DNA from: a virus | Reading direction: 5' to 3' (one strand) | Length of the DNA stretch: 64,000 nt | IMG/VR virus record: IMGVR_UViG_3300037068_000078 | Location: 13,729 to 77,728 of that record | In this document: positions 21,428-56,976 of the stretch, piece by piece | How positions within the stretch are numbered: the first letter of the stretch is position 1 | How the letters are laid out: each line of letters starts with the position of its first letter | Translations under genes and position numbers: made by a program | Notes under the pieces: generated by a model | The model's database searches: none | The model's input: only the letters and a program-made list of their open reading frames with translations | Told to the model about the DNA's origin: nothing

Positions 21428-22075
21428 ATGAACAAACGAGCGACGCCGGTCCCCAAGCCGGTTAGCGCTGCCACGCGAGCGATGCTCGACGAGATGGCAG
21501 TGGATAGCAGCAAGCCAGCCAGCGAGGATAAGCTGGAGGCGTGTCGCACCAAGCTGGTCACCCTGCGCGACAAGCAACGTGAGAAGCAGGATCTCGAGGA
21601 GCGCATCAAGGTACTCAACACCGCCATCCTGGAGATCACGCAGCGCGAGCTCGTGGACCTGATGCAGGACGCGAAGATCGACAAGCTGGGCCTGCCCGCC
21701 ACGGGCAATTGGCCCGCGTTCGACGTCGAGTTGGACGACTACTACCACGCCGTCATCCCCAAGGAGAACGAGCAGCTTGCGTACAAGCATCTCGAGAAGG
21801 TGGGGATGGAGGATCTCATCAAGACTACGTTCACCATCAGCTTCGGGCTGGGCGAGGGCAAGCGCTGCCAAGCGTTCCTGAAGAAACTGGAGAAGTTGAA
21901 GGAGCCCTTCGACGTGAAGCAGGGCGTGCCGTGGAACTCCTTGACCGCCTACATCAAGGGTGAGTACAAGGCTGGAAGACCGCTCACCGAGAAGGTGAAG
22001 GGACTACTCGGTGCGACGGTCGGTCGCATCGTGAAGGTGAAACCGCAGAAGAAGGACCAGCGGAATGGCAAGTAA
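21428..22075 (+). CDS. Replication-module hypothetical protein
   Basis: Coiled-coil N-terminus, DLIK, V.W.SL.A.IK; precedes SSB-like gene. Confidence 0.7.
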   Translation: MNKRATPVPKPVSAATRAMLDEMAVDSSKPASEDKLEACRTKLVTLRDKQREKQDLEERIKVLNTAILEITQRELVDLMQDAKIDKLGLPATGNWPAFDVELDDYYHAVIPKENEQLAYKHLEKVGMEDLIKTTFTISFGLGEGKRCQAFLKKLEKLKEPFDVKQGVPWNSLTAYIKGEYKAGRPLTEKVKGLLGATVGRIVKVKPQKKDQRNGK

Positions 22076-23000: not shown

Positions 23001-23068
23001 CACTTCTTCGCAGCGGCGCGGCTACCCGGTCCCCAGCGCGGGGCCGGGTAGTTCCTTAAACGGGGTAG

Positions 23069-25208: not shown

Positions 25209-25679
25209 ATGGAGGTACAGGTGAGTAGACTGATTATGGTGGCAGCGTTCGCGCTGTGCAACGAGGAGGTTCTTCTCGTGCGAAAGGAGAAGCCGAAGTG
25301 GCAGAGCGGCTTGCTGAACGGCGTGGGCGGCAAGGCAGAAGTACACGAGACGCCTCTTGATGCAATGTGCAGGGAGTTCTTGGAGGAGACCAACATCGAA
25401 GTCTCAGCCGATAGGTGGAACCACTTCGCGTCGGAGTTCGGGCGCGGCTACGTGGTGCACTTCTTCCGGTGTCGTCTCTCGACGCTGGTGCGTGACGTCA
25501 CTCCCACGCAGAACGACGCGGGCGAGAAACTGTACTGGTACAACGCGCGCATGCTGGACAGGCAGTCGATCATCGGCAACCTGCAGTGGCTCATCCCGCT
25601 GGCGGTGGACCCGCGCGGCTTCAACCGTCCAGTGATCGTGGACGCGATCGAGGACATCAAGGAGAACCCCACGTGGTGA
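25209..25679 (+). CDS. NUDIX hydrolase
   Basis: GGK.E..E...AM.REF.EET Nudix box. Confidence 0.9.
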   Translation: MEVQVSRLIMVAAFALCNEEVLLVRKEKPKWQSGLLNGVGGKAEVHETPLDAMCREFLEETNIEVSADRWNHFASEFGRGYVVHFFRCRLSTLVRDVTPTQNDAGEKLYWYNARMLDRQSIIGNLQWLIPLAVDPRGFNRPVIVDAIEDIKENPTW

Positions 25680-26149
25680 TAGACGAACGGTTGGTGCGCT
25701 TGGGCGCGCAGGGTGGCTGGATCGCGGTGGACCTCGACGGTACCGCGCTGGTCTACGACAAGTGGGTGGCGTGGAACGCGTTCGGCGAGCCAATCTGGCC
25801 CATGATCGAGCGCATCAAGGCATGGCGCGCAGCTGGCATCGAGGTGCGCTGGATGACGGCCCGCGTGTTCCCGTTCATCCCCAAGGTCAACGAGGGCGCG
25901 TGGTCCATTCAGCAAAAGTGCCGCATGACCGACCGCATGTGGACCATCGGCGAGATGATCACGGCCATACAGGCGCACACCGAGCCGTTCGTCGGCGAGC
26001 GACTGCCGTGCACGTGCGCCAAGGACGTGGACATGATCGAGCAGTGGGACGACCGCGCCGTGCAGGTAGTGGCGAACACTGGGCAGACGCTGGCGCAAGG
26101 TTGGGAGGCAGAGCGCGAGGCGCTGCACGGGAAGGTGTTCAAGTCATGA
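25676..26149 (+). CDS. HAD-superfamily phosphatase
   Basis: IAVDLDGT, TAR, K...M...WDDRA. Confidence 0.8.
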   Translation: MIDERLVRLGAQGGWIAVDLDGTALVYDKWVAWNAFGEPIWPMIERIKAWRAAGIEVRWMTARVFPFIPKVNEGAWSIQQKCRMTDRMWTIGEMITAIQAHTEPFVGERLPCTCAKDVDMIEQWDDRAVQVVANTGQTLAQGWEAEREALHGKVFKS

Positions 26150-27666
26150 AGCCCACCATCATCCTCGGCCCGCCCGGTACGGGCAAGACTACATCGATCC
26201 TCAACCTCGTCGAGGAGTCGATGGCGCGTGGCACCGCGCCGGATCAGATCGCACTCGTCACGTTCACCAAGCGCGGGGCGGACGAGGGCAAGACGCGTGC
26301 AAAGAAGAAGTTCAACCTGGAGGATCGCCAGCTGCCGTTCTTCAGCACGCTCCATGCCATGTGCTATCGCCAGTTGGGGCTCAAGCGGAGCGACCTGCTC
26401 GCAGGGCAGGCGTTCAATGAGTTCGCCCAGTACGCAGGCGTGCGCGTCACCGGCCGAGCGTGGTCCGACGACGGCATTCTCACAGGCTTCGAGGCGGGCG
26501 ACCGCATACTGTTCATGGAGAACCTGTCACGCATACGGCAGGTGTCGCTCCGCGAGCAGTACGAGTGCGGCAACGACGACCTCGACTGGAACGAGGTGCA
26601 GCGCGTGAGCAAGGCGCTGGCTGCGTTCAAGCATCGCAAGGGCCTGCTCGACTTCACGGACATGCTCATCGAGTTCGTGCGCATGGGTAATGGCCTGCCG
26701 ATAGAGGAGCTATACGTCGATGAGTCGCAAGATCTATCTAGTCTCCAGTGGGCCGTCGTCGATCTCCTCGCTGCCAACTGCAAGCGGGTCACGGTGGCTG
26801 GCGATGATGACCAAGCTATCTACAGATGGGCGGGTGCCGACGTCGAGCACCTCATCAACATGGACGGAGACGTGCGAGTGCTCGGGCAGAGCTACCGAGT
26901 GCCTACGGCTGTGCAGGCATTGGCGAACGAAGTGATCGGCGGTGTCGCGCACAGGCGATCCAAGGAGTGGGCCGCGCGCAAGGCCAAGGGGCGCGTGGAC
27001 TACGCCATGGCGTTCTCTGACGTCGGCGTGGATAGCTCTGACGTGCTGGTGCTGGCGCGCAATACCTACGTGCTGAAGGAGCAGGTGATGCCAGCGCTGA
27101 AACAGGAGGGCATCATCTACGAGGTAGGTGGCAAGTCCTCGGTGGACGTAAAGATCATGCGGGCAGTCACCTCGTGGGAGATGCTGCGCGCGGGCGACGC
27201 CGTCTCGCTGGAGGAGGCCCGCGTGATGTACGGGTACATAAGCAGCAGCACCGGCGTCAAGCGTGGCTTCAAGGAGCTGAAGAACTACGGCGACGACGGC
27301 GACGCGCCCATCACCATGCGCGACTTAGTCAACACGGGCGGCCTGCTCGTGGACCCGGTGACCATCTGGCACGAGGCGTTGGACCGCCTGCCGAAGGAAG
27401 AGATGAGCTACATGCTGGCGGCCCGCCGCAGGGGCGAAAAGCTGAAGGGTACGCGCCCGCGCGTGCGGCTCTCCACCATCCACTCTGCCAAGGGAGCAGA
27501 GGCGGAACACGTGGTCTTGATGAAGGAGATTGCCGCACGCACTCACTACGAGATGCAGCAGCAGCCGGACGACGAGCGTCGCGTGTGGTACGTGGGGGCC
27601 ACGCGCGCGAAGGAGAGACTGACCATCGTAAACTCAGAGACACCGAGGGAGTGCCCCTGGCTATGA
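26146..27666 (+). CDS. UvrD/Rep-like SF1 helicase
   Basis: GPPGTGKT, VDESQD, AGDDDQAIY, QSYR, STIH.AKG.E, YVG.TRA. Confidence 0.95.
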   Translation: MKPTIILGPPGTGKTTSILNLVEESMARGTAPDQIALVTFTKRGADEGKTRAKKKFNLEDRQLPFFSTLHAMCYRQLGLKRSDLLAGQAFNEFAQYAGVRVTGRAWSDDGILTGFEAGDRILFMENLSRIRQVSLREQYECGNDDLDWNEVQRVSKALAAFKHRKGLLDFTDMLIEFVRMGNGLPIEELYVDESQDLSSLQWAVVDLLAANCKRVTVAGDDDQAIYRWAGADVEHLINMDGDVRVLGQSYRVPTAVQALANEVIGGVAHRRSKEWAARKAKGRVDYAMAFSDVGVDSSDVLVLARNTYVLKEQVMPALKQEGIIYEVGGKSSVDVKIMRAVTSWEMLRAGDAVSLEEARVMYGYISSSTGVKRGFKELKNYGDDGDAPITMRDLVNTGGLLVDPVTIWHEALDRLPKEEMSYMLAARRRGEKLKGTRPRVRLSTIHSAKGAEAEHVVLMKEIAARTHYEMQQQPDDERRVWYVGATRAKERLTIVNSETPRECPWL

Positions 27667-28398
27667 GCGAGCTAACACCAGAGCAGAAGGCGGCGATCAT
27701 TGTGGCGCGTGCGGCAGTCCTCAACACGCGGGTCGCTGCCCTGCAGGCAGAGGCGGAGACACAAAGGTTTGAGGGCCGGTTCGTAACGGTCAGCAGTGCA
27801 GACTTCATTCGATTGATCAACGAGAGCGGCTGCATGGACGCAGACGTTCGCGCGTTGTTAATGACAGGGAGGTGGGTGTGAGCAGAACACCAGAGAGCGT
27901 GATTATCGTACAATGGCACGACGTCGAGACGGATGCGCCGCCGGAGAAGAAGCTGCTGATGGTGACCGGCGACAGCGGCTACGTCAACAACAAGGATTTC
28001 CTGTGCCTCGCGTACTACGACGAGCAGTATCGTCCACGACTGGGCGGCGAGATTCGTTGGCAGTCTGTTACCAATGACTCGCTCTCTGACTGCGGTTGGT
28101 ATCCGAAGCGATGGGCTCATCCCATCAATCTGGAGAACGTGCCATGAACAATGACCACTTCTGGCGCGTCTGCCGCGAGATTGCAGACATGCGACACGAC
28201 GAGGTGTACGACCTGCCTGCTCAAGCGCTCAACGACATGAACGTGCCGCACGACGACCCGTTCGGCATTCCAACGGTGGAGGACAAGCTGCGACTCATAA
28301 AGCAGTACGCATGTATCTATGCGCACGGCGACATGTTCGACTGCCGCGTTTCACACGACCCACACAAGTACACCTTTGAGAGGAAGAGACCATCATGA
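27663..28398 (+). other. Three small coupled hypothetical CDSs (27663-27881, 27872-28147, 28144-28398)
   Basis: Overlapping start/stop codons. Confidence 0.6.
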
Positions 28399-28931
28399 TG
28401 AACGTAATGCTAGACCTCGAGACGTGGGGCACAAAGCCGGGCAGCGCCATTCGCAGCATCGGTGCTGTCACGTTCGACCCATTCGGCGACGGGACGGTCG
28501 ACGAGTTCTACGCCAACATCAGCGACGAGTCGTGCGCTGCGGCCAATCTCACGAAGGACCCGAGCACCATCGCATGGTGGGCGAGGCAGTCCGAAGCAGC
28601 ACAGAAGTCTCTGCTCAAGGACCAGCAACCGATCGAGAAGGTCGTGCGCGACTTTCGCCAGTGGTTCATCGCGAACAAAGGTTTGTGGGTGTGGTCGCAG
28701 GGCAGCAACTTCGACGTCGTGTTGTGGGAGGCTGCACACGAGCGGGTCAACGTCGTCGTCCCGTGGAAGTTCTGGGATGCTCGCGACACCCGTACGGCGT
28801 ACGAGATCGGCAGGCTGAACACCCGCACGATCAAGCGCGCTGGCACCTACCACAACGCGCTGGACGACGCCAAGCATCAGGCGAAGTGCGTGCAGCTGGC
28901 GTACAAGCGTATCTCTGTGTCGATGGTTTAG
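28395..28931 (+). CDS. DEDDh 3'-5' exonuclease
   Basis: MLDLET, SIGAV.F, G.NFD, RDTRT, HNALDDA. Confidence 0.9.
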   Translation: MMNVMLDLETWGTKPGSAIRSIGAVTFDPFGDGTVDEFYANISDESCAAANLTKDPSTIAWWARQSEAAQKSLLKDQQPIEKVVRDFRQWFIANKGLWVWSQGSNFDVVLWEAAHERVNVVVPWKFWDARDTRTAYEIGRLNTRTIKRAGTYHNALDDAKHQAKCVQLAYKRISVSMV

Positions 28932-28981
28932 ATAACGAGTTTCAACCAAGGGTAGCCCCCAAAAAGAGGAGAATAAGGGAA

Positions 28982-29461
28982 ATGTTTACGGAAGAGCTGA
29001 AACAACTGCTTGAGAAAGCCATCAAGCACGGAAACCGTGAAGCCAGAACTAGGATTGTGGTTCTGTCTGAGCATGCTGGTGTCAGTGTGGTTTCGTATAT
29101 CGAGCAAGAAGCTCAGCTAGAAGAAAAACAACAGCGATCTCCCGTGCAACACGCACCGCGTGAAAAGCTAGCAAAATTTCTGCAAGAGATCGAAGACACT
29201 GACTGGGATGGGGCCGGAGCTGAGACTCCGCCTGAGGAAGTGTTAGGCTCATTACAGCGGATGCGAGACAATCATGACACATACGAAGAACTTTCAGATG
29301 GACAAAAGAGATTTGTCTCGCTGTTGGAGAACTTGTTTGACGCGCGTATGGCGTTTGAAGATGTTGACCGCGACATGCTGTTCCCTTCAGGATTCCCAAG
29401 ATATCGGAACAGCGCACGCAAAATGAAAGCGCTGGCAAAAGCAAACGGATGGAAGAAATGA
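28982..29461 (+). CDS. Hypothetical protein with AT-richer codon usage
   Basis: Purine-rich RBS region; stop overlaps the next ATG. Confidence 0.6.
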   Translation: MFTEELKQLLEKAIKHGNREARTRIVVLSEHAGVSVVSYIEQEAQLEEKQQRSPVQHAPREKLAKFLQEIEDTDWDGAGAETPPEEVLGSLQRMRDNHDTYEELSDGQKRFVSLLENLFDARMAFEDVDRDMLFPSGFPRYRNSARKMKALAKANGWKK

Positions 29462-30408
29462 AGTCCGGCATCCAGCGCTTCTTCGCCTACGCACGCGCCC
29501 GCCACGAGATCACCCTGCGGCGGGCGCTGGGGCTACCGCGTCCGTGGACCAAGGACAGCATCCTTGACACGTACCGCTTCACGTGCGTGTTCCGCGAGCA
29601 GGACAAGACAACCAAGTGGTTCCGGCAGAACGTGCGTGACCCCATGCGCAATGCACAGTCAGTGCTGCTAGCAACGGTGGTGTTCCGCATGCTCAATCGC
29701 ATCGAGGTGGGCGAGGCCATCTTTCATGCCGAGTACAAGAACGGCGGCACGGCGTGGGATGCCTTCCTCGAGAGCCGCGACGTGCGCCACCTGCAGCGCG
29801 CCATCAAGCGAGCCATCCCGGACGGTCCCTACGTCACGGGCGGGTACATCATCACGTCTCCCCCCGGCTGCCCGAAGTTGGAGGGCATGATGAAGGTGAT
29901 CAAGTCCTTTGAGCGGGGGGAGGAAGAGTGGGAGGGGCTTGGCGCTGGCATAATCGGCACGATGAATTGGGACGGCGAGGAGGGGGCAGCAGAGTACATG
30001 CTGCACAATCGCGGCGATGTCACGCTCGAGAGTTGCTGGCGCTGGCTGCGTCGCTTCAAGTGGTTCGGTGACTTCCACTCGTACGAGATCGTGACGGACC
30101 TGCGTCACACGCGACTGCTCGACATGGCACCTGACATCAACACTTGGGCCAATCCCGGCCCCGGTGCAAATCGCGGGGCGAACCGCGTGTACGGCCGTGA
30201 CAAGGACACGCGCAATAGCAAGGAGAAGCTGAACGCGGAGATGCATGAACTTCTTGGTCATTCACTTGATAGCAAGTTGTGGCCGCAACGACCAGTCAAT
30301 GAATGGCCAAGATGGGAGATGCGAGACGTAGAGCACACGCTCTGCGAGTTCGACAAGTACGAGCGCGTGCGGCTGGGCGAGGGGCGTCCTCGCGGAGTCT
30401 ACAGGTGA
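29458..30408 (+). CDS. 5-hydroxymethyluracil DNA kinase (5-HMUDK; aGPT-Pplase1 family)
   Basis: PWT.D.IL..YRF..V.RE.D.TT, Y...TDL, GPGA.RG, D.EH.LCEFDKY.R. Confidence 0.85.
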   Translation: MKSGIQRFFAYARARHEITLRRALGLPRPWTKDSILDTYRFTCVFREQDKTTKWFRQNVRDPMRNAQSVLLATVVFRMLNRIEVGEAIFHAEYKNGGTAWDAFLESRDVRHLQRAIKRAIPDGPYVTGGYIITSPPGCPKLEGMMKVIKSFERGEEEWEGLGAGIIGTMNWDGEEGAAEYMLHNRGDVTLESCWRWLRRFKWFGDFHSYEIVTDLRHTRLLDMAPDINTWANPGPGANRGANRVYGRDKDTRNSKEKLNAEMHELLGHSLDSKLWPQRPVNEWPRWEMRDVEHTLCEFDKYERVRLGEGRPRGVYR

Positions 30409-30409
30409 C

Positions 30410-30955
30410 ATGGCACTGACTGATGAAGAGAAAGAGAAGTTCCGGGCAGCGGTGACCAGCGGCGAATACTCCATGTCGCAGATCGCCAGGATGTTCAACA
30501 TGGTCTCAGTCAACGCGGCGATAGGGAGGGCGCACCGCATGGGTATCTCAAACGGCAGGGCACCGCTGAACAATAACAAGCGCCGTTTACCCGAGGGCTC
30601 GGGTCTCGAGCTCATAAAGAAGATCGGGGCTGGCATACCGCGCAGGCCGCGCGGTCGTCCACCGGGCAGCATGAGACTGACGTTCACGCCACCGCTCGGT
30701 GATGTCACGCCACCCAAGCTGAAGTTGATAGCAGAGTGGGACAAGAAGAAGTTTCCGCAGCCGAACGCCGCGTGCTTCGACTGCATCAACCTGTTCACGC
30801 AGTGCAAGTGGCCCATTCGTGATGAGCCAGTTCAGTTCTGCGGTGAGTTAAAGCGTGAAGCGAAACCGGGTGAGAAGTTGAACGATGTGCCGTATTGTGA
30901 TAGGCACTCCAAGATGGCTAAACAGGAACCGTACAAGAAGGGAGAGCAGTGGTGA
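30410..30955 (+). CDS. gcrA: GcrA-like transcriptional regulator
   Basis: S.SQIA......NA.IG.AHR.G HTH and C-terminal CKWP...FCG...PYC..H. Confidence 0.8.
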   Translation: MALTDEEKEKFRAAVTSGEYSMSQIARMFNMVSVNAAIGRAHRMGISNGRAPLNNNKRRLPEGSGLELIKKIGAGIPRRPRGRPPGSMRLTFTPPLGDVTPPKLKLIAEWDKKKFPQPNAACFDCINLFTQCKWPIRDEPVQFCGELKREAKPGEKLNDVPYCDRHSKMAKQEPYKKGEQW

Positions 30956-31737
30956 GAGTTTATATCCCAAGCATGGGCCGGGCGGGTGACATCGGCGCGA
31001 AGGTGATGACGTGCAACTACATTGACCGTGCGACCTACGTGGTGCCCTCGGCGGAGGTCAAGCGATATCAGAACTCGCTCGGCATGCGCAAGGGCACGTA
31101 CGAAGTACTTGCCTGCGACGAGGTCGGCATCGCGCAGACGCGGCGCTGGATCGGTGAGCAGGCCGCGTCGCGCAAGGAGGCCTCCTTCTGCATGATGGAC
31201 GACGACCTGCGCTTTGCCGTGCGCGAGGGCAAGGATGGCATCAAGCTGCGCAATGCCGAGCGCCCGGACGTGGCAGCGATGCTGGAGTGGATTGCGGGCA
31301 GCTTAGGCAAGTACGCGCACGTCAGCGTATCGGCGCGTGACAAGAACCACACGAACACAGACGCGCATGACGTCAACTGTCGCACCCTGCGCGTGCTGGC
31401 CTACCAGACCAAGAAGTTCTTGGCGATGGAGCACGGGCGGGTGGCCGTGATGGAGGACTTCGACGTCAACCTGCAGCTGTTGCGCAGCGGCGAACAGAAC
31501 ATCTGCTCGTTCGTGTTCGCCAGCGACCAGCGCGAGACGGGATCCAAGGGTGGGTGCAGCAGCTACCGCACGTTGGAACTGCACAACGCAGCTGCGCATC
31601 GCATCGTGGAGCTTCACGCGCCCTTCGCCAAGCTGCGTGAGAAGGAGACCAAGGCCAAGGGCGTGTTGAGCAAGCGCATGGAGGTCACTATCTTTTGGAA
31701 GAAAGCGTTCGCATCGAGCCAGAGGAGAGCCGCATGA
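30949..31737 (+). CDS. GT-A fold glycosyltransferase (TET-associated/GREB1-like type)
   Basis: IPS.GRA, GIA.TR.WI, MMDDD, MEDFD..LQLL..G, GGCS..RT. Confidence 0.75.
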   Translation: MVRVYIPSMGRAGDIGAKVMTCNYIDRATYVVPSAEVKRYQNSLGMRKGTYEVLACDEVGIAQTRRWIGEQAASRKEASFCMMDDDLRFAVREGKDGIKLRNAERPDVAAMLEWIAGSLGKYAHVSVSARDKNHTNTDAHDVNCRTLRVLAYQTKKFLAMEHGRVAVMEDFDVNLQLLRSGEQNICSFVFASDQRETGSKGGCSSYRTLELHNAAAHRIVELHAPFAKLREKETKAKGVLSKRMEVTIFWKKAFASSQRRAA

Positions 31738-31982
31738 ATAACCCGTACGTTTGGGCCGCGCTCGCTGTTGCCGTTACACTGTGTGCACTTGGTGCAGCGT
31801 GGCGGATGGCGCACCGCGCGGAGCGTCACAGCCGCGATGAGTACGACCGGTTGATGCGCCGCGTGGGCACGGACGGCGCGTACTACTACGGCGAAAGCGA
31901 CACGGTCTATGACGAGTCCGGCATGTCGGCGGGCTTCGGCGTGGGACCACTGATCAAGAAGGATGGGAAAGATGGCGTATAA
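31734..31982 (+). CDS. Small membrane protein
   Basis: N-terminal hydrophobic helix. Confidence 0.5.
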   Translation: MNNPYVWAALAVAVTLCALGAAWRMAHRAERHSRDEYDRLMRRVGTDGAYYYGESDTVYDESGMSAGFGVGPLIKKDGKDGV

Positions 31983-32946
31983 GCAGGAGCCGCCGTTCGC
32001 GGTGCAGATCGAGCTCGCAGAGGGGTGCAACCTGCGCTGCTCCTTCTGCGGGCTGAATGGCATACGCGGCAAGGAGAACGACTTCAAGGTGATGACGGAC
32101 AAGGTGCTGCAGTCCGCCATCAAGCAAATGCTGGCGTTGAACTGGAACCCGCGCATTGAGTTCGCAATGCACGGCGAGCCCACCATGCATCCAGGCTTCG
32201 TGGACATGGTGAAGATCGTGCGCTGGCTCGCGCCCAAGTTCCACATCATGATGACCAGCAACGGCGGCGGACTGCTGAAGAAGCCGGGGCCGGTGCAGCT
32301 GATTAAGGACCTGTTCGACGGTGGGCTCAACTGCCTAGCGCTGGACGACTACCAGGACGCGAAGCTGGTGCCGAAGATCCGCGCGGCACTGGGGAACAAC
32401 CTGGGCGAGCACGTGGACGCGCAGGTGTACGAATATCCGGAGGACAAACGTGGCAACCCGCACGCAAGACATCATCGACGCTCACTCGTCTTCATTCAAG
32501 CGATTGATGCAGCAACGACAGGAACTCACTCGCATCTCAACAATCATGCTGGAGCGGGAGCTCCTCCTAATGATGACGGCGCTGGGAAGAGATGCGCTAA
32601 GCCATTTCGCGAACTTTCAATACGATGGGACGGTAACGTGGCGGTCTGCTGCAATGACTGGCGAGGTGTTTACAAATGCGGAAATGTTGTTTCGGACGGT
32701 CTTGACACCGTCTGGAATGGTGATCCAATGCGCGCTGCCAGAGTTAAGCTCTACCACGGAGAGCGAGACTTTGGTCCATGCAACGGCTGCGATGCTAAGT
32801 CGGATCGCGTCGGACTTCTTCCAGATAAATTCGGCCGTGAGGATCTACCGAGAGTTTCAGCCGCCGTCAAGCGAGCAATCGGAGCCGCGCTTGAAGGTGA
32901 TAGTTATACAAAAGCTGTACTGAGACCATGGGAGGTGGGGAAGTGA
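31963..32946 (+). CDS. Radical SAM protein with SPASM/Twitch domain
   Basis: CNLRCSFC, GEP, TSNG, C..PF..L.I..DG.V..CC.D, C..C. Confidence 0.9.
   Translation: MGKMAYKQEPPFAVQIELAEGCNLRCSFCGLNGIRGKENDFKVMTDKVLQSAIKQMLALNWNPRIEFAMHGEPTMHPGFVDMVKIVRWLAPKFHIMMTSNGGGLLKKPGPVQLIKDLFDGGLNCLALDDYQDAKLVPKIRAALGNNLGEHVDAQVYEYPEDKRGNPHARHHRRSLVFIQAIDAATTGTHSHLNNHAGAGAPPNDDGAGKRCAKPFRELSIRWDGNVAVCCNDWRGVYKCGNVVSDGLDTVWNGDPMRAARVKLYHGERDFGPCNGCDAKSDRVGLLPDKFGREDLPRVSAAVKRAIGAALEGDSYTKAVLRPWEVGK
32450..32923 (+). CDS. Candidate overprinted protein (157 aa) in the +1 frame of the radical SAM gene
   Basis: GGAGG 6 nt before GTG; ordinary residue composition; coincides with a codon-usage shift in the host gene. 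Confidence 0.4.
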   Translation: MATRTQDIIDAHSSSFKRLMQQRQELTRISTIMLERELLLMMTALGRDALSHFANFQYDGTVTWRSAAMTGEVFTNAEMLFRTVLTPSGMVIQCALPELSSTTESETLVHATAAMLSRIASDFFQINSAVRIYREFQPPSSEQSEPRLKVIVIQKLY

Positions 32947-33155
32947 ATACAGAAGAGAACACAGTTAAGCTGGTGGGACAGATAGAGAGGCGCACCGACT
33001 ACATCGCCACCATCAACGGCGTGCTTCATCAGCTGTGGTGCCTCACGGACATGGCCCAGTATCACCAGCGATGGGAGTGGCGCAAGGTGCCGTTCTACTC
33101 CAACGAGGAGGCATTGAAGATCGGTACGATCGTGGGAGGAGACAAGGCGCTGTGA
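32943..33155 (+). CDS. Small hypothetical protein
   Basis: GTGA coupling on both sides. Confidence 0.5.
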   Translation: MNTEENTVKLVGQIERRTDYIATINGVLHQLWCLTDMAQYHQRWEWRKVPFYSNEEALKIGTIVGGDKAL

Positions 33156-33628
33156 GGAAGCCCATCATCATCGGCATGAACAACCCCATCAGCCTTGCGC
33201 CCGGTCACGAGCTCTATCCGCTGCCCGATGGCTGCACCGGCAACCGGCTGTGGAAGATGTTGGACGCCAGCATGCAGACGCGCGGCAAGGGGCGCGTGAA
33301 GATGAAAGCGTACCTCGACGCGTTCGAGCGGCGCAACTTGGTGATCGACAAGGCGTGGAACAAGGTGGCGGCCCGCGCACGCGCCCACGAGATATCCATC
33401 GAGCTCTTCGGTAGCAAGCGCACGGTGGTCCTACTAGGCACGGAGGTAGCAAACGCCTTCGGCCTCCCCCCGCTCAAGCTTGTTCCGACGATGGTCGGGG
33501 GGATTGTATTCCGGCAGGTGCCGCACCCGTCGGGAAGGAACCTCTGGTACAACACGCCGGAGAACATGGTCAGCGTGGGGAACCTGCTCGCTGACCTATA
33601 TGAGGAGAGCATTCGTGAAGATGCCTGA
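33152..33628 (+). CDS. Uracil-DNA glycosylase superfamily protein
   Basis: IIG.N, TG.RL, VVLLG..V, PHPSGRN.WYN. Confidence 0.65.
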   Translation: MRKPIIIGMNNPISLAPGHELYPLPDGCTGNRLWKMLDASMQTRGKGRVKMKAYLDAFERRNLVIDKAWNKVAARARAHEISIELFGSKRTVVLLGTEVANAFGLPPLKLVPTMVGGIVFRQVPHPSGRNLWYNTPENMVSVGNLLADLYEESIREDA

Positions 33629-33935
33629 GTGTAGTTGCTACGCGGCTGACGCCGTGGCTGCAGAGAACTTGAACTACGACGTGGCGTGGGCAGCTGCTCA
33701 CTCCGCTGAGTTAGCGGCGACGTTGAACGGAATATGTAAGGAGGCGTACCCGTACTACGTCAACACCGTAGTCGTCATGCTGCTGCGGAGCGTAGCAATA
33801 CACACCAAGGGCAAGAGGAAGGAGGACGAGCGCTTTTTGGAGATACTGGAGACGCTCGTGGGTGATGTTAAAATGCGCGACGACGTATTGAACGCGCTGC
33901 TGGAGCGCAACAGAGAGGGAAGAACCAATCAATGA
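33621..33935 (+). CDS. Hypothetical protein
   Basis: Coupled ORF before the TS homologue. Confidence 0.5.
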   Translation: MPECSCYAADAVAAENLNYDVAWAAAHSAELAATLNGICKEAYPYYVNTVVVMLLRSVAIHTKGKRKEDERFLEILETLVGDVKMRDDVLNALLERNREGRTNQ

Positions 33936-35011
33936 AAGTCATCAAGGGCCGGAACGTGAATGGGCTTTATGCCGTGGGCCACGACTACTTGACGTCGTAT
34001 GGCGAGGAGGGGACGTCGCGCGCGGGGTCGGTGCTGGTATCACCCAAGCCCGTCACCTCGGTGTACCTGCAGCCGCGCGAGCGCGTGCTGTTCGACGCCG
34101 TGCGCAACGCCAACCCGTTCTTCCACATGATGGAGGGGCTGTGGATGCTGGCAGGACGCAGCGACGCCAAGTTTCTGAACCACTACGTGCGCGACTTCGG
34201 CAAGAATTTTGCGGAGGATGGTCTGTACATTCACGGCGCGTATGGTGACAGGTGGCGGAGCGCATTCGGCTTCGACCAGCTGACTGAGATTGTGGACAAG
34301 CTGCGCAAGAACCCGGACGACCGCCAGTGCGTATTGCAGATGTGGGACTCGCGCCCTGGCGCGCAGCACGACGCGGGATGCGACGACCTGATGGGCGAGT
34401 GGAAGGACCGGCCCTGCAACACGCAGGCGTTCTTCCGCGTGCGCAAGGAGCACACGTTTCGGTTTCGCGGCGGCGAGTCGACCTACGACGACAAGCTCGA
34501 CATGACCATCTGCTGCCGCAGCAACGACATCGTGTGGGGTGCCTACGGCGCGAACGCCGTGCACTTCAGCATGCTGCAGGAGTACATGGCCGGGCGCATC
34601 GGCGTGGATGTCGGCACGCTCTATCAGGTGTCGAACAACTACCACGGTTATACGGCGGTGCTCGACGCGCTGGGCGACCCCATGCTGCAGGAGAGCGATC
34701 TGTACACCAGCGGCGAGGTCCACGCGCTGGACATGGGCACCGACTGGGGCAGGTGGGACGAGGACCTGAAGCACTTCATGAAGTGGCACGACGACATTTT
34801 GTGGGCTGAGGGCCACGTGTCGTTCGGGACGAGCTTCTTCAACGAGTGGTTCACGCAGGTACCGATGCGCGCGGCTATTTCCAATTGGTGTCACCGCCGA
34901 GGCGACAAGGAGAAAGCGCTCGACTTCGCAAGTCGCATCGCCGCAAGCGACTGGCGCACCGCCTGCACGCAGTGGCTTCAGCGCAGGTACGACGGGAGCA
35001 ACGGCAAGTGA
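33932..35011 (+). CDS. Thymidylate synthase homologue, probable dUMP hydroxymethylase
   Basis: NPFF...E.LW.L.G, GAYG.R, RQ.V...W, PCN, RSND..WG..GAN; clustered with 5-HMUDK. Confidence 0.85.
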   Translation: MKVIKGRNVNGLYAVGHDYLTSYGEEGTSRAGSVLVSPKPVTSVYLQPRERVLFDAVRNANPFFHMMEGLWMLAGRSDAKFLNHYVRDFGKNFAEDGLYIHGAYGDRWRSAFGFDQLTEIVDKLRKNPDDRQCVLQMWDSRPGAQHDAGCDDLMGEWKDRPCNTQAFFRVRKEHTFRFRGGESTYDDKLDMTICCRSNDIVWGAYGANAVHFSMLQEYMAGRIGVDVGTLYQVSNNYHGYTAVLDALGDPMLQESDLYTSGEVHALDMGTDWGRWDEDLKHFMKWHDDILWAEGHVSFGTSFFNEWFTQVPMRAAISNWCHRRGDKEKALDFASRIAASDWRTACTQWLQRRYDGSNGK

Positions 35012-35622
35012 TCGACGAGATCGAGAGCGACCCGCGCATTGCGGGGCAGATCACGCGATACCACACGTGGCCGCGCCTGCGCGACCAATCCGTGGGCGAG
35101 CACAGCTGGCAGATCACTCGCATCCTGCTGACCGTGTGGCCCGCCTGCCCGCGTCGCATGTTGGTGCACGCCACGCTGCACGACGTGGGCGAGATGGCCG
35201 GGGACATACCGTACCCTGGCAAGCGCAACGACCCGGTGCTGAAGGACAGAATGGACGCGGCCGAGCGGGCGGTGCATTACAGAATGACGGAGCGGTGGCG
35301 CTTGCCCTCGCCCGCCATCCTGTCTCACTACGAGGAGAAGGTGTTCAAGTGCATCGAGTACATCGAGATGTGGGAGTACGGCCTGCAGGAGCAGAACCTC
35401 GGCAACAAGTACGGCGCGGTCGTCTCACTGCGCATGATCGTGGCGGCCAACGCGTTGATCGACGCGCTGGTGCCAACGCGCGGTGACCCGGACATTCGTC
35501 CGTCGATCCGCAAGTACGTGGACGAGCGCAAGCGGCAGGAGTGGGGAGCAGAGGGCGTGCCCCCGCGCCTGAGAGCCGAGCAGGCAATCGAGAAGCAACA
35601 GGAGGAGCAGAGCAATGGCTAA
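35008..35622 (+). CDS. HD-domain 5'-deoxynucleotidase-like protein
   Basis: RYH......QSVGEHS, LHD.GE..GDIP. Confidence 0.85.
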   Translation: MIDEIESDPRIAGQITRYHTWPRLRDQSVGEHSWQITRILLTVWPACPRRMLVHATLHDVGEMAGDIPYPGKRNDPVLKDRMDAAERAVHYRMTERWRLPSPAILSHYEEKVFKCIEYIEMWEYGLQEQNLGNKYGAVVSLRMIVAANALIDALVPTRGDPDIRPSIRKYVDERKRQEWGAEGVPPRLRAEQAIEKQQEEQSNG

Positions 35623-36505
35623 CACGGGAATGGAACACATGAAGCACCTGCAGGCGGTCGTGGATAGCGACGTCCGCGTGCTGCAGAAGAAGGAGGCGAC
35701 CTACCAGGGCAGCTGGAAGCGCGCTGGCGGGCGCTCGGCTTGGTTCATGATGCGCCGGAACATGGACCGGCTCATCGAGATGATGAAGAAGCCCGACGCC
35801 GGACACGGCTTCAGCGTCGAGGACCTCGACGATGCCATCCGTCACGCCACAGTGCGCGAGCCCACGAACCAAGATGTCACGCTTGACGCGTCGATAGTTA
35901 AGTACCTGCGCGACAGCTACTTGGCCGAGAACGTGTTCGCCAAGATCCGCGAGAACCCGGATGGCCGCGATGGCACCGTGCTCGCCTGCCTGCGCGACCT
36001 GCGTCGCTACCTCACGCTCATCGAGGCCGAGATGATCTCGCGCGGCGTCGTGAAGAACGAGATGCCAGCAACGCTCGATGAGCTGTTGACCAAGCCACTC
36101 GTTGTAATGGAGACAGTTGTCACGACTGATCCAGTGCGCGCCCCATGGCAGATCTGCCACGCGCCCATGTCGCTCGACAGTCCACAGGAGACCGAGTTAC
36201 TGCAGCACTTCTACTCGCAGCGCACGGAGACCATGTGGCAGCTGGAGCCGTTCGTCGTGAGCGATAACCTACCGCGCTCACTAGTGAGCTACTACAATCT
36301 ATCGGCACACGACAATCGAACGTGGGTGCTGCGCGTGCAGAATGCGCCCGCAGAACTGCGCGACCAGTGGCCGCGTCTGCAGCCAGAGCTCAACGCCAAG
36401 GAGCACGAGGACCACCCGAACCGTTTCATGTACGAGTGGCTAGACGGCCCGCAGAAGTACAGGCTGCGCGACAGGTACGTCACGTTCTGGGGGAGGGAGG
36501 CGTGA
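35615..36505 (+). CDS. MazG-like nucleotide-modification-associated protein
   Basis: L.KK...Y..SW, R..DRL, L.DL..Y..L. Confidence 0.6.
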   Translation: MANTGMEHMKHLQAVVDSDVRVLQKKEATYQGSWKRAGGRSAWFMMRRNMDRLIEMMKKPDAGHGFSVEDLDDAIRHATVREPTNQDVTLDASIVKYLRDSYLAENVFAKIRENPDGRDGTVLACLRDLRRYLTLIEAEMISRGVVKNEMPATLDELLTKPLVVMETVVTTDPVRAPWQICHAPMSLDSPQETELLQHFYSQRTETMWQLEPFVVSDNLPRSLVSYYNLSAHDNRTWVLRVQNAPAELRDQWPRLQPELNAKEHEDHPNRFMYEWLDGPQKYRLRDRYVTFWGREA

Positions 36506-36777
36506 GCATCACGTACAACCCGGCCACGCTTAGGTTCGGCTGCGACGCGTGCGACGAGGCATTGGTTATAGAGGAGAGCGCTGGGGGCGGGGCTGACAGG
36601 CTGCCTCCCGCGTGGGGCAGAGTATCACTGTCCACTGGAGCAGACCCCAACACGGGATGGTACGAGGCAACAAGCTCGATCCTGTGCCCCGCATGCGTGA
36701 TCAAATACAAGAAAAAGGTGATAGGTGAAGGCGACGACAAAAAGCATACGGCCCCGTCGGCAGGTTCTCAATCCTAA
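36502..36777 (+). CDS. Small zinc-finger protein
   Basis: CDAC...P..W...LCPAC. Confidence 0.5.
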   Translation: MSITYNPATLRFGCDACDEALVIEESAGGGADRLPPAWGRVSLSTGADPNTGWYEATSSILCPACVIKYKKKVIGEGDDKKHTAPSAGSQS

Positions 36778-38821
36778 CCAGATGCCGTTGATCACGCCGA
36801 ACTCCACGTGGGTTCGGCCGTCGGAACTCCCGGACCTGCGAGGGCTCCGGGAGTTCGCCATTGACACAGAGGAGAAGGACGATGGACTTGCCAACGATCG
36901 CGGCCCCGGTTGGGTGTACGGCGCTGGTCACGTTGCTGGTGTTAGCTGCGCTTGGCGCGAGGGCGACGGCACGCTGCGGTCGATCTACGCACCCGTACGC
37001 CACCCGGACAGCGACTGCTTCGATCACGACGCTGTACGCAGGTGGCTCAAGGACCACTTCAACTGTGGTGCGCGGGTCATATTCCAGAACGGGCCGTACG
37101 ACCTAGGTTGGATCGAGCAGGACTTCGGCGTTAAGGCTCCGGAGCACATCGACGACATCGGCTGCATGGCGGTGATGATCGACGAGACACATCGCGAGTA
37201 CAGCCTGGACGCCATCTCGCGGCGACTGGGGCGGCAGGGCAAGAACATGCGCGAGCTCATCGAGGCCGCGCACGCCTACGGCTATCCAGCTGCCAAGGTC
37301 AAGGAGGCGATCGGCAGGATGCCCGCGCGCTACGTGGGGCCGTATGCAGAACAAGACGCAGTCGAGACGCTGCTCGGGGCCGAGGACATGCGGCCGGAGT
37401 TGGCGGAGCAGGGCTTGCTCAACGCCTACCAGCTGGAGATGGATCTCATCCCGCTGATCCACGCCATGCGCAAGCGCGGCATTCGCATGGACATGGACCG
37501 GCTGTACGCAAACCGCGACAAGCTCTACGAGATGCGCGACGAGACGCTGAAGGAGATACAGCGCAGGTGCGGTGGCCGCCAGCTGGTGATGGAGGACATC
37601 CGCTCGGAGGACTGGCTGCACCGCACGTTCGGCGCGCAGGGTGTCGAGTACCGGGGTGACGATGGCTCCTATAACTTCCAAAAGGACTGGATGCGTCAAG
37701 GCTACCTGGGACGCTACCAGGACGGCAAGGAGGGCCACTGGCTGCCGCTACTGGTGGCGCGTGCCAAGCAATGTCACGATAGCGCCGACAAGTTCATCGA
37801 TGGCTTCCTCATCAACTTCGCGCACAACGGGCGCATCCATGCCAGCATCAATCAGTTCCTGAACGAGGACGGTGGCACCCGCACGCACCGCTTCTCCTAC
37901 TCTGATCCCCCGCTCCAACAGATGCCGAGCCGGGGGGAGATGCTGATAAAGACGTGGCTGTTGACGAAGCAGATCGTGGAGATGATCCGCGTGTGCTTCC
38001 TGCCGGAGCGTGGTGAGAAATGGTTCAGCCCGGACTACTCGCAGCAGGAGTACCGGCTGATGGTGCACTACGCTGCGATGGAGGAGTTGACGAAGGCGGA
38101 CTGGGCCGCGCAGAAATACATCGACGACGTCAACACCGACTTCCACAACATGGTGGTGGAGATGACGGGCTTGCCGCGCCAGCGCGCCAAGGACGTGAAC
38201 TTCGCCAAGTCGTACGGCGCTGGCCTGAAGAAGTTCGCGGCCATGACGGGCATGACGCTGGAGGAGTCTGAGAAGACAATCACGCAGTACGACACCGAGA
38301 TGCCGTTCATTAAGCAGTTGAACGAGCGCTGCGACAAGGCCGCGCAGCAGCGCGGGTACATCGTGATGCTCGACGGCGCACGCATGCACTTCAACACCTG
38401 GGAGTGCGCCAAGTGGATCGACTACGACGTCAAGCGCGCGGCGGAGTTCGCGGGCTATAAGCAGAACGACTGCCACAAGGATGAGGCGCTTGAGCGCACG
38501 CGCACACCGGGGCATCCGTGGTTCGGCAAGCCGTTGCGCCGCGCCAACACGCGCAAGGCCATGAACGGCTTGATCCAGGGTGGGTCGGCGCGCATGGGCA
38601 AGCGCGCGATGCGCGACATGTGGCGCGAGGGCTACGTGCCGCTCGTGCAGATGCATGACGAATTCCCCAACTCCGTCGCGAAGGAGAAGGATGGCAAGCG
38701 CATTGCTGAGATCATGCGGTCTGCCTTCAAGGGGCGCGTGCCGTTCAAGGTGGATGAGGAGTACGGACCCAATTGGGGAGAGGCGAAATACAAATGGAAG
38801 GAAGTCAAGGCAGCAGCATGA
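36725..38821 (+). CDS. DNA polymerase, family A
   Basis: Exonuclease motifs DTE, N..YD, YA..D; T.RFS...P.LQQ.P, DYSQQEYR, K..NF...YG, IQG, HDE. Confidence 0.95.
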   Translation: MKATTKSIRPRRQVLNPNQMPLITPNSTWVRPSELPDLRGLREFAIDTEEKDDGLANDRGPGWVYGAGHVAGVSCAWREGDGTLRSIYAPVRHPDSDCFDHDAVRRWLKDHFNCGARVIFQNGPYDLGWIEQDFGVKAPEHIDDIGCMAVMIDETHREYSLDAISRRLGRQGKNMRELIEAAHAYGYPAAKVKEAIGRMPARYVGPYAEQDAVETLLGAEDMRPELAEQGLLNAYQLEMDLIPLIHAMRKRGIRMDMDRLYANRDKLYEMRDETLKEIQRRCGGRQLVMEDIRSEDWLHRTFGAQGVEYRGDDGSYNFQKDWMRQGYLGRYQDGKEGHWLPLLVARAKQCHDSADKFIDGFLINFAHNGRIHASINQFLNEDGGTRTHRFSYSDPPLQQMPSRGEMLIKTWLLTKQIVEMIRVCFLPERGEKWFSPDYSQQEYRLMVHYAAMEELTKADWAAQKYIDDVNTDFHNMVVEMTGLPRQRAKDVNFAKSYGAGLKKFAAMTGMTLEESEKTITQYDTEMPFIKQLNERCDKAAQQRGYIVMLDGARMHFNTWECAKWIDYDVKRAAEFAGYKQNDCHKDEALERTRTPGHPWFGKPLRRANTRKAMNGLIQGGSARMGKRAMRDMWREGYVPLVQMHDEFPNSVAKEKDGKRIAEIMRSAFKGRVPFKVDEEYGPNWGEAKYKWKEVKAAA

Positions 38822-39288
38822 GAAAACTACCGAGCCAAACTGTTCTCTGCACGCTGTTCCGATATGCGCCCAAGTCCGGTGTGCTCACGCGGTGGGATGG
38901 CCGCACCTGCGGCAAGAAGGTGTCGATCAAGAATGCCGACTACTGGGCCACGCGCGTGGTGTGGAAGATGCAGACAGGCAGCGACCCGCGCGTGGTGGTG
39001 CCGCGCGATGGCGACCCGAGCAACCTGCGCTGGTCCAACCTGATGGAAACCAGCCACAGCGGGCACCGGGTGCGGGGCGCGGCACACAGTACCAGCAAGA
39101 CCGGCCTGCGGGGCGTGTATAAGGTGGGTGCCCGGACCTACCGGGCTCAGGTGTGGTGGCGGGGCCGCAAGCTACACTTGGGCACCTTTCCGTCCGGGGT
39201 GGCAGCTGTGGCGGCCCGCAAGACGGCCCTGGCGCGACTTATGGCGGGCAAACCGGCTCTCACAGCTGCCAAGATAAGGTCGCGTTAA
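38818..39288 (+). CDS. HNH-AP2 homing endonuclease-like protein, degenerate HNH
   Basis: RDGDPSNLRWSNL then S.TG.RGVY, Y.AQ, HLGTF....A..AR. Confidence 0.7.
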   Translation: MRKLPSQTVLCTLFRYAPKSGVLTRWDGRTCGKKVSIKNADYWATRVVWKMQTGSDPRVVVPRDGDPSNLRWSNLMETSHSGHRVRGAAHSTSKTGLRGVYKVGARTYRAQVWWRGRKLHLGTFPSGVAAVAARKTALARLMAGKPALTAAKIRSR

Positions 39289-39315
39289 CCAGCTGGGGCC
39301 AGTCTCAAAATAGTC

Positions 39316-39346
39316 CTTGCGCCCCGGCAAGAACCGCCACTATAGT
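39316..39346 (+). promoter_or_regulatory. Candidate sigma70-type promoter for the accessory region
   Basis: TTGCGC-N18-TATAGT, each preceded by C as in alphaproteobacterial CTTG...CTATA promoters. Confidence 0.5.
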
Positions 39347-40785
39347 ATGAGCGTGATTTGGTAGTGCTTAAGGCAACGGTCTCATTAGCCGCGAAGCCCC
39401 ACTCCAGATCATCCGACGCGGTACACGTACTAGCGCCCGGTGCTGGCAACAGCACCCGCCCCGTACTTACACTGCGCCACGCGCCAGCCAAAAGGGCAGC
39501 GGGTTCTCCATACCCCAAGGCAGCGCACGGTGCGGTACAGTCTCTCCTCCGGCATACGCCTAACGGCAGCCGCACATCCGGAGAGGCGCAGGGGCTAAGG
39601 CACAGCTAGGCACGGGGTGGATTCCGGCGGGCTGCGGTGCAAACGCGGCGGGTTACAAATTTTAAACAGGCAAAAGTTTATGCGCCGCGCGGCACCAGCT
39701 GCGCGGCGCATTGCCGTTTGCCTAGCAAGCGTAACGCGGGCCGCATGGTGCGGCCTGCACAACAGCAAGTGGAGAACGACATGATGTACGACCAGAAGAA
39801 GGCGCTGCGGTTGCTGGCGCGCTGCACGATGCGTGATTTCACCAAGACCGACTGGTACGGGTTCGCCGGTTGCGAGACCAAGGACCCCATGATCGGAGAA
39901 GTTGACGAGCACACACTGATACTCGACGGCGACGTGCTGCTGGTGCTGGACAAGCAAGACCTGGAGGGCGGCACCGAGGGCGTCACCTTCAAGCTGAAGA
40001 TCAACAGCTACTGAGATGCGCATCCTCCGCACAACGAAAGCGCTGCGAGCCCTCGCAGCGTTCACCGCGTGGAAGCTCACGCTCCTCACCATTGTACCAG
40101 CACTGGCAAACTAGGAGATCGCAAATGAAGTTTCGCAAGGTTGGGCGCGCACCGCGTGCCACACGCAAGCAAATGGGTCTAGCACCTGTAGCCACGGTTC
40201 AGCATGTGAAGCAGGAGCTGAGCAAACTTCGCCGCCTGCGCACACTTGGTTACGCTACGCAGTACGGTCGCATCGAGGAGCTCGAGAGCTTCATCGAGAC
40301 CAATGGCGCTTCACACGGGTACTGAGGAGATCGCAATGTCCGACAAGTTCATGCAGGCATACGTCAACGGCAAGCGGCTCGCAGCACTGCGCGCCCATCC
40401 TAAGTTCGAGGCGCTGCGGCAGGACACCTTGCGCCTGCAGCGCGAGGCGCTCGACAAGGCGCGCAGCGCCATCACCAAGGTTGAACCCAAGCAACGTGAC
40501 CTGAGGAGGGAACCATGAGGCAGCTAGGCAAGGCAGTCGGCATCCTATTGGCGTTTGACCGGTTGAGCGATGCACAGTTCGAAGACTTGCACGCGTTCCA
40601 CGCGCCGAGTGAATGCTACGGCGACGTTGAGCACGGTTTGCGCCGTCGCTTCCGCACTGTGCGGCGACACGCCTGCCACGTGGCGGGCTGCAAGAACCTC
40701 GCGCAGCTGCGCAGGGCAGTCATCAAGGTGTGTCCCACGTGGGACCGCTACAATCACCACCGTCTCGGCATCAGCGTTATCTAAG

Positions 40786-56906: not shown

Positions 56907-56976
56907 ATGTCCTCGCCGAACATGACCAATAGAGCGATGACGCAGATCCCAGCGACGACGCACGATGCTGCGAAGG

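Follow-up and report, generated by a model that had tools for sequence, protein, structure and literature searches.

Here we describe a packed, co-directional gene array (28395–36505, + strand, with several overlapping stop and start codons) in a 64,000-nucleotide stretch of viral DNA, the window, which corresponds to bases 13729–77728 of the 77,728-bp IMG/VR virus record IMGVR_UViG_3300037068_000078; coordinates below are positions in the window. On balance, we consider it somewhat probable that this array directs a two-stage hypermodification of thymidine that skips phosphorylation and amino acid transfer, and in which a sugar on 5-hydroxymethyldeoxyuridine (5hmdU) is tailored by a radical S-adenosylmethionine (SAM) enzyme. 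In the thymidine hypermodification routes that we found worked out in the literature, 5hmdU in DNA is first phosphorylated, after which an amino acid:DNA transferase (ADDT, formerly aGPT-Pplase2) puts an amino acid or polyamine in place of the phosphate. A first-pass annotation of the window had proposed a 5hmdU pathway without the canonical transferase, probably one in which a sugar on 5-hydroxymethyluracil (5hmU) is tailored by the radical SAM enzyme. That proposal gains support, as ADDT is absent, a glycosyltransferase and the radical SAM enzyme are paired in 28 of 30 related loci, and the radical SAM enzyme is closest to BtrN; the kinase step that accompanied it did not survive.

Absence of a 5hmdU kinase and of ADDT

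The record is rated complete by CheckV, and the searches for missing enzymes took in all of it, including the 13.7 kb outside the window. The ADDT profile, PF18724, searched in six frames over all 77,728 bp of the record, found nothing at E ≤ 1, which upholds the earlier statement that an aGPT-Pplase2 transferase is absent. As a positive control, the same search recovered ADDT in Pseudomonas phage PaMx11 (3.3e-29) and Bordetella phage MW2 (1.7e-39). PF18725, considered as an accession for aGPT-Pplase, was rejected as an unrelated HEPN family. ADDT was found in none of the 30 related loci described below, and five complete relatives, searched over their whole genomes, have neither ADDT nor any AAA_33 kinase.

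The product of 29449–30408 (+) had been annotated as the 5hmdU kinase, 5-HMUDK. Its only match is to PF18723, HMUDK_hel (1.9e-42; 146 bits against a cut-off of 25), with residues 8–310 aligned to profile positions 4–277 of 281. Because the match spans the entire protein, there is no room for a P-loop domain. The kinase of PaMx11 is gp49, an experimentally defined, separate P-loop protein of 189 residues, and the window protein is homologous to the product of the next gene, gp50 (46% identity). The HMUDK_hel protein is a helix-hairpin-helix paralogue of ADDT, of the M6 gp55/PaMx11 gp50 type, and not a kinase.

Nor did a kinase emerge elsewhere. A six-frame search of the complete genome with the kinase profile PF18748 was negative at E ≤ 1, and tblastn with the kinases PaMx11 gp49 and MW2 gp14 returned nothing from it; the sole Walker A motif in a real open reading frame (ORF) of the genome is that of a UvrD helicase. 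The position at which PaMx11 and MW2 have their P-loop kinase is occupied by an ORF of about 165 residues (28964–29461, +, start uncertain) that contains no P-loop, has no Pfam, PHROG or NCBIfam match and has no relatives in the 30 loci. A kinase hidden in the longer frame 28319–29461 was considered and rejected, as the frame holds no Walker A motif and no family match. Pfam scans, here and below, covered ORFs of about 90 residues and longer, minus a few overlapping ones. With no 5-HMUDK kinase in the genome, the earlier "phosphorylate, then substitute" framing, together with the idea of a sugar-phosphate on the base, has no enzyme behind it.

A glycosyltransferase and a BtrN-like radical SAM enzyme

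The GT-A glycosyltransferase recognized by the first-pass annotation (30949–31737, +) scores above the cut-off of the TAGT family (PF20691; 48.7 bits against 27.5) and matches phrog_842 (8.8e-36). Its DDD (residues 84–86), ED (169–170) and GGC (201–203) motifs are invariant in 16 orthologues, and it shares 34% identity with gp22 of phage PhiJL001. Family membership and gene context lead us to predict that it is a 5hmdU-DNA O-glycosyltransferase.

The assignment of 31963–32946 (+) as a radical SAM enzyme with a SPASM domain also held: Pfam matches both Radical_SAM and SPASM (4.5e-12), and the cysteines of a twitch domain are present. Cysteines C22, C26 and C29 of its CNLRCSFC motif (CxxxCxxC) are invariant in 18 orthologues, as are C211, C229, C230, C273 and C276, which align to the C-terminal domain of BtrN. 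The best match in the PDB is BtrN itself (2-deoxy-scyllo-inosamine dehydrogenase, 4m7t; E = 3e-7), covering the core and the auxiliary-cluster domain, and anSME comes next. A match to an NCBIfam twitch subfamily (4.8e-12) lies below the cut-off. The protein has in common with BtrN and anSME the CxxxCxxC core and one C-terminal auxiliary [4Fe-4S] site, with the cysteines aligned, but the similarity is low, and the protein is longer and has invariant motifs of its own, NPH.R and GTH...NH.G. BtrN and anSME are alcohol or thiol dehydrogenases, and BtrN oxidizes a secondary alcohol of an aminocyclitol. By analogy, we predict that the enzyme encoded here tailors a sugar, although a DNA-attached sugar would be unprecedented as a substrate for this group.

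The gene is uneven in composition. Its GC content at third codon positions (GC3) is 0.87–0.90 in the first half and 0.43–0.46 after position 32450, and its overall GC content declines from ~0.62 to 0.53; in high-GC relatives GC3 stays close to 0.8 along the whole gene. A 157-residue ORF in another frame (32450–32923) overlaps the low-GC3 half, and the drop could reflect a recombinant origin or an overprinted gene.

Recurrence of the cluster in related viruses

An IMG/VR scan with the radical SAM protein retrieved 30 loci at 45–64% identity. In 26 of them the gene immediately preceding radical SAM is TAGT, and the full order HMUDK_hel, TAGT, radical SAM and thymidylate synthase (TS) homologue was found within the stretch fetched in 23; HMUDK_hel upstream and TS downstream are present wherever the contig reaches far enough. 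The loci with the module span GC contents of 38–65%. This recurrence of the same genes in the same order in related viral contigs indicates that the cluster is more than a chance assembly. One contig of a metagenome-assembled genome has the trio in the order HMUDK_hel, radical SAM, TAGT, and a scan of GTDB genomes for prophage copies found that contig only. The radical SAM family comprises 1,376 sequence clusters at E ≤ 1e-10, and the 120 listed are all from metagenome sources. No orthologue was found in 50,697 phage records, where only Campylobacter phage proteins appeared, at 21% identity.

Two loci, L023 and L037, lack TAGT and encode at the same position a 331-residue protein with no Pfam or PHROG match. 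In the ESM Atlas this protein leads to clusters of T4 beta-glucosyltransferase and other GT-B enzymes (feature scores 0.96–0.98, structural TM 0.64–0.74); a PDB sequence-profile search with the L023 protein gave no match. Related proteins are encoded by E. coli phages IME392 and EP_H11, and EP_H11 and EcoM_IME92 (probably the same phage as IME392) are named among SP15-like phages with modified T (PMC13697223). The gene order in both loci (L023:4991–7577; L037:4991–7952) is HMUDK_hel, GT-B, radical SAM, a P-loop kinase and a MUG/TDG-like gene. ADDT is absent from the L023 record, which is 99% complete, and this variant module may make yet another base. With these two loci included, a glycosyltransferase of one fold or the other stands beside the radical SAM gene in 28 of the 30. 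We regard this constancy as the strongest argument that the radical SAM enzyme works on a glycosylated base.

A TS homologue and the precursor base

The TS homologue (33932–35011, +) had been identified by its motifs, and DRPCN, CRSND and GAN are indeed present, as are matches to phrog_5131 (1.6e-99) and Pfam Thymidylat_synt (3.2e-18). It belongs with the phage dUMP hydroxymethylase type and is 43% identical to PaMx11 gp51 and 41% identical to MW2 gp17; the PCN, RSND and GAN motifs are common to the TS homologues of PaMx11, MW2 and PhiJL001. The catalytic PCN motif aligns as well, and the Asn of GAN aligns with the position that discriminates between pyrimidines, which is Asn in TS and Asp in the aligned CMP hydroxymethylase, and it is shared by 14 homologues, among them PaMx11 gp51. 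A role as dCMP hydroxymethylase was rejected on account of this Asn. PaMx11 and its relatives hypermodify 5hmdU-derived thymidine (PMC8989533). From the sequence, we infer that the enzyme is a hydroxymethylase rather than a methylase and that the precursor is 5hmdU, not 5hmdC.

Downstream of TS are an HD phosphohydrolase and a family A DNA polymerase (PolA). The HD gene noted in the first pass (35008–35622, +; YfbR-like 5'-deoxynucleotidase type) has a GTG start that overlaps the TS stop codon. It matches Pfam HD_3/YfbR-like weakly and phrog_6047 more firmly (9.3e-23), and tblastn also detects it; its homologues are PaMx11 gp52 and MW2 gp18. The earlier mention of an upstream NUDIX gene is likewise supported by a Pfam match (8e-11) at 25209–25679 (+), and its product is a probable nucleotide-pool enzyme. 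The polymerase gene (36725–38821, +; Pfam DNA_pol_A, 2e-36) follows the array in a position syntenic with PaMx11, MW2 and PhiJL001; directly downstream of it is an HNH endonuclease gene (38773–39288; phrog_99, 4.8e-27).

Upstream of TS, the gene at 33152–33628 (+; phrog_12275) encodes a protein whose AlphaFold (AF2) model (pLDDT 95.7) has the fold of MUG/TDG-like DNA glycosylases of the UDG superfamily. The top Foldseek matches are human TDG and E. coli MUG (E = 1.4e-5, probability 1.0, TMq 0.64), and the TDG/MUG matches as a whole range from 1.4e-5 to 1e-3 with TMq 0.57–0.66. By sequence, GMNNP and HPSGRN motifs are conserved, and GMNNP may correspond to the G-I-N-P-G-type motif that holds the catalytic Asn of the family. 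PF03167 was detected in one relative among the 120 listed of 224 and not in the window protein, and a PDB sequence-profile search gave no match. The MW2 homologue, gp08, lies in the hypermodification region of that phage. A glycosylase with this fold, whose family handles U, T and 5hmU mispairs, would fit a genome replicated from a dUMP-derived pool.

The last gene of the array (35615–36505, +) encodes a 296-residue protein that had been called MazG-like. This could not be confirmed: the protein has no Pfam, PHROG or NCBIfam match, and the DUF1599 profile gave no match to it at E ≤ 1. It has an N-terminal domain of ~140 residues with conserved motifs, which is kept beside the TS gene in relatives, and the ESM Atlas offers a weak language-model lead to small phage proteins (score 0.83).

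Proposed pathway

In the first stage of the route that we favor, before replication, homology suggests that the TS homologue would convert dUMP to 5-hydroxymethyl-dUMP. Nucleotide pools would be biased by the hydrolases of the HD and NUDIX types, perhaps together with the 296-residue protein, PolA would incorporate 5hmdU instead of T, and the MUG/TDG-fold glycosylase would police uracil or unmodified sites. In the second stage, on DNA, TAGT would use a nucleotide-sugar to glycosylate the 5-hydroxymethyl oxygen directly, in the manner of the related enzyme JGT in base J synthesis, and the BtrN-like radical SAM enzyme would then abstract a hydrogen from the sugar. If BtrN is a guide, the most likely outcome would be conversion of a sugar hydroxyl to a keto group, with epimerization and dehydration as alternatives. 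The final base would be a tailored glycosyl-oxymethyl-uracil.

Several points weigh against this scheme. The sugar, the site of radical attack and even DNA as the target are all things that we infer, and the TAGT enzymes characterized in phages act on 5-hydroxymethylcytosine (5hmC). No partner enzyme for a keto-sugar product, such as an aminotransferase or reductase, was found. All 31 NCBIfam matches of the radical SAM protein are far below their cut-offs (the best, spiro-SPASM, scores 54 bits against 250), and its identity to BtrN is low, so that its reaction may be of another type. Loci L023 and L037 carry a P-loop kinase (AAA_33/HMUDK_HMUD1-like) next to the radical SAM gene; the exclusion of phosphorylation therefore does not extend to every relative. 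In two further loci, L010 and L012, the radical SAM gene has no recognizable TAGT or GT-B partner in the available sequence, and in L010 the gene upstream encodes a 291-residue protein of no known family. Finally, the HMUDK_hel protein has a conserved Glu/Cys motif, which suggests a catalytic step that the scheme leaves unexplained.

L012 differs from the window in two other respects. Its family A DNA polymerase (L012:2245–5907; 1,220 residues) has an intein splicing domain and an HNH endonuclease inserted within it, and a dCTP deaminase gene follows the radical SAM gene.

The HMUDK_hel protein and alternative readings

An AF2 model of the HMUDK_hel protein, built with 19 orthologues, is all-alpha (pLDDT 86.7). 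Its best VIA-align match is the crystal structure of PaMx11 gp46/PUGT (8z2n; Z 10.5, rmsd 4.1 Å over 227 residues), ahead of the queuine-salvage enzyme QNG1 and helix-hairpin-helix DNA glycosylases. Since Z-scores below 13 can arise by chance among helical folds, this is moderate evidence; Foldseek with the model gave nothing at E ≤ 0.001, and the link to gp46 rests on VIA-align and the motif. Residues E295 and C299 are invariant in the orthologues, and hhalign aligns them, weakly (E = 0.12), with E..LC of gp46; ADDT depends on the Cys and Glu of that motif (PMC8989533). M6 gp55, of the same family, is listed as the second DNA-glycosylase-like "aG/PT-PPlase" of M6 (Lee et al. 2018, PMC5889632). 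The statement that the cluster contains no recognizable transferase accordingly holds for the ADDT clade and not for the aGPT-Pplase/DNA-glycosylase-like superfamily, to which the HMUDK_hel protein belongs. With its Glu/Cys motif, the protein is a transferase-like member of that superfamily, but it falls outside the clade for which amino acid transfer has been demonstrated. Its gene is found with TS in all variants of these clusters, and the protein probably acts on, or presents, 5hmdU in DNA.

These features raise the possibility that the HMUDK_hel protein is a real group transferase: its Cys would attack C6 to give an exocyclic methylene, as in ADDT, the contribution of the glycosyltransferase and the radical SAM enzyme would be either the incoming nucleophile or a leaving group, other than phosphate, on 5-CH2-O, and the base would not be a simple O-glycoside. 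The proximity of the fold to gp46, the invariant Glu and Cys and the presence of the protein in every locus all favor such an activity, as does a sub-threshold match of the ADDT profile to the C terminus of the PhiJL001 homologue. Against this, M6 gp55 is dispensable for glycinylation in vitro (Lee et al. 2021, PMC8989533), and a protein of this type is found beside TS in clusters that have both kinase and ADDT (PaMx11, MW2), so it is not specific to one chemistry. Given also that a glycoside is a poor leaving group and that the hhalign support is weak, we regard a transferase role of this kind as unlikely.

A second reading leaves the sugar aside and lets the radical SAM enzyme act on the base side chain, either oxidizing the 5-CH2-OH or 5-CH2-OR carbon in the manner of anSME or forging a C-C bond, with glycosylation a separate or protective event. 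It draws on anSME, which converts the CH2-XH of Ser or Cys to an aldehyde (formylglycine), as the second-best PDB match, and on the 95% complete record of L012, which has the radical SAM gene without TAGT. The radical SAM enzyme of M6 rearranges a bond at the 5-methylene (PMC8989533), but it is of a different family. The glycosyltransferase of either fold next to the radical SAM gene in nearly all loci, and a best match, auxiliary domain included, to the carbohydrate-type dehydrogenase BtrN, speak for the sugar as the substrate and make action on the side chain quite unlikely.

Were the radical SAM enzyme unrelated to the base and engaged, for example, in cofactor or nucleotide metabolism, the DNA would hold plain glycosyl-5hmU or just 5hmU. 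PhiJL001, which has HMUDK_hel, TAGT and TS without a radical SAM gene of this type, offers a precedent for that arrangement, and the enzyme has no equivalog assignment. However, its position between the glycosyltransferase and TS is strictly kept over a wide range of GC content, it shows no QueE-, NrdG- or MoaA-level scores, and it is not linked to the DpdA gene described below. We consider a plain base of this kind very unlikely.

That the glycosyltransferase modifies a phage protein or a glycan of the host envelope, and lies in the cluster by coincidence, is highly improbable even given the functional diversity of GT-A enzymes, because Pfam places it in TAGT, a family of DNA-base glycosyltransferases, because it lies inside a nucleotide/DNA-modification operon in 26 loci and next to TS in PhiJL001 and MW202897, and because a T4 beta-glucosyltransferase-like enzyme substitutes for it in two loci.

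The sugar-tailoring route can be extended further, as a tentative and rather doubtful proposal. In this extended form, a new class of DNA base would be made without a kinase by the glycosyltransferase and the twitch radical SAM enzyme, jointly with the orphan aGPT-Pplase paralogue. The radical SAM enzyme, working directly on a sugar carried by double-stranded DNA, would be the first of the radical SAM enzymes that tailor carbohydrates to have DNA as its substrate, and it would leave a keto-, deoxy- or rearranged glycosyl-thymidine. Uncultured marine and high-GC phages would commonly contain this base. The paralogue with the Cys/Glu motif might process the radical SAM product further.

Other genes of the array and of the window

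The array begins with a gene for an Rv2179c-like 3'-5' exonuclease (28395–28931, +; PF16473, 6.3e-46) that is also present in three related loci (L008, L023 and L037). A GcrA-like gene (30410–30955, +; Pfam GcrA, 3.7e-13, with NCBIfam scores far below cut-off) separates HMUDK_hel from TAGT in this genome only, as tblastn did not detect it in any of the 30 loci. Because GcrA is a cell-cycle factor of alphaproteobacteria, the gene hints at the host group. Two small ORFs flank the radical SAM gene: one of 95 residues with a single hydrophobic helix (31695–31982, +), which has no family match and no relatives in the loci and whose coding status is uncertain, and one of 75 residues (32928–33155, +), whose TGA stop overlaps the GTG start of the glycosylase gene. 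A scan of 27500–39500 for promoters and terminators gave counts not above those in shuffled sequence, and we therefore claim no operon boundaries.

Upstream of the array, the HAD gene listed in the first pass was not confirmed; a DLDGT motif at 25721, in the ORF 25586–26149, was all that we found, with no Pfam match. This ORF overlaps the annotated start of the UvrD-like helicase ORF (25762–27666). The helicase domain begins only at residue 129, and the true start is therefore probably later than 25762. The replication region (21386–24748) encodes proteins like gp33 and gp34 of Pam3 and, within a 559-residue protein, a TOTE-type archaeo-eukaryotic primase domain.

A DpdA-family DNA transglycosylase is encoded on the opposite strand at 56205–56963 (−; PF23859, 1.4e-45), an indication that the DNA may bear a further modification, one of the 7-deazaguanine type. 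No member of the QueC, QueD, QueE or FolE families turned up in the Pfam survey of the genome ORFs. The radical SAM protein was considered as a QueE surrogate for DpdA and rejected: it has a twitch domain and no QueE-type scores, and five relatives that carry it lack DpdA, so it is not tied to DpdA.

The GC content of the window is ~60%. The genes for head and tail resemble those of lambda (portal, terminase gpA, capsid E) and of Mu (baseplate). We found no close cultured relative, including by a search with a protein from the capsid region.

Comparison with known systems and significance

The closest known clusters are those of Pseudomonas phages M6 and PaMx11, Bordetella phage MW2, Salmonella phage ViI and Delftia phage PhiW-14 (PMC5889632, PMC8989533). 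Clusters of the M6/PaMx11/MW2 type share with the one described here the TS hydroxymethylase (41–43% identity), the HMUDK_hel paralogue (35–46%) and 5hmdU as the presumed precursor; the HD hydrolase, the MUG/TDG-like gene (MW2 gp08) and PolA are also shared, and their relative order is conserved. They differ in that the P-loop 5-HMUDK, ADDT and the PLP, FAD or acetyltransferase tailoring enzymes are absent here, with TAGT and the twitch radical SAM enzyme in place of the kinase/ADDT/amino-acid tailoring block. M6 also encodes a radical SAM enzyme, gp53, but this is spore-photoproduct-lyase-like and belongs to another family.

Among cultured phages, the closest with a sugar-type variant is PhiJL001, a phage of alphaproteobacteria (Mesyanzhinovviridae, Keylargovirus). 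Its genes gp19–gp24 repeat the order seen here for HMUDK_hel (42% identity), TAGT (34%), TS (41%) and PolA, and ADDT does not score above the cut-off, but an Nmad5 protein (gp23) occupies the position of the radical SAM enzyme. The literature that we searched contained no description of the PhiJL001 virion base.

Base J of kinetoplastids, made by JBP1/2 and JGT, offers the nearest parallel for the sugar. JGT, a TAGT-family enzyme, glucosylates 5hmU in DNA (Bullard 2014, as cited in 10.1101/2023.12.21.572611), and GT-A glycosylation of the 5hmU hydroxyl in DNA by a TAGT-family enzyme is what we predict here. In base J, however, 5hmU is formed by a dioxygenase acting on DNA, whereas here it would arise before replication through the TS homologue; base J is also untailored, with no radical SAM enzyme involved. 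Phage 5hmC glycosylation, by the T4 alpha- and beta-glucosyltransferases or by 5mYOX/TET enzymes with glycosyltransferases (PMC8256090, 10.1101/2023.12.21.572611), shares the post-replicative GT-A or GT-B step, but the modified base there is cytosine, and the TS homologue here has the uracil-type Asn. GT-A genes near ThyS genes have been counted in metaviromes, with sugar-modifying genes sometimes adjacent (10.1101/2023.12.21.572611); radical SAM partners have 0 occurrences in that paper. We found no description, in the literature searched, of a radical SAM enzyme, glycosylation and thymidine hypermodification combined in this way.

The cluster thus represents a recurrent natural alternative in which the kinase and ADDT are absent and a glycosyltransferase and a radical SAM enzyme stand in their place. 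If the proposed route is correct, it would add a base-J-like base with a further tailored sugar to phage DNA chemistry, and the radical SAM enzyme would be the first DNA-directed member of the BtrN-type group. It would also provide a background free of kinase and ADDT in which to learn the role of the second aGPT-Pplase paralogue, the M6 gp55 type. With more than 1,300 clusters of the radical SAM protein in metagenomes and modules spanning 38–65% GC, the base could be common in nature, and it could matter for restriction evasion and as a source of DNA-modifying enzyme tools.

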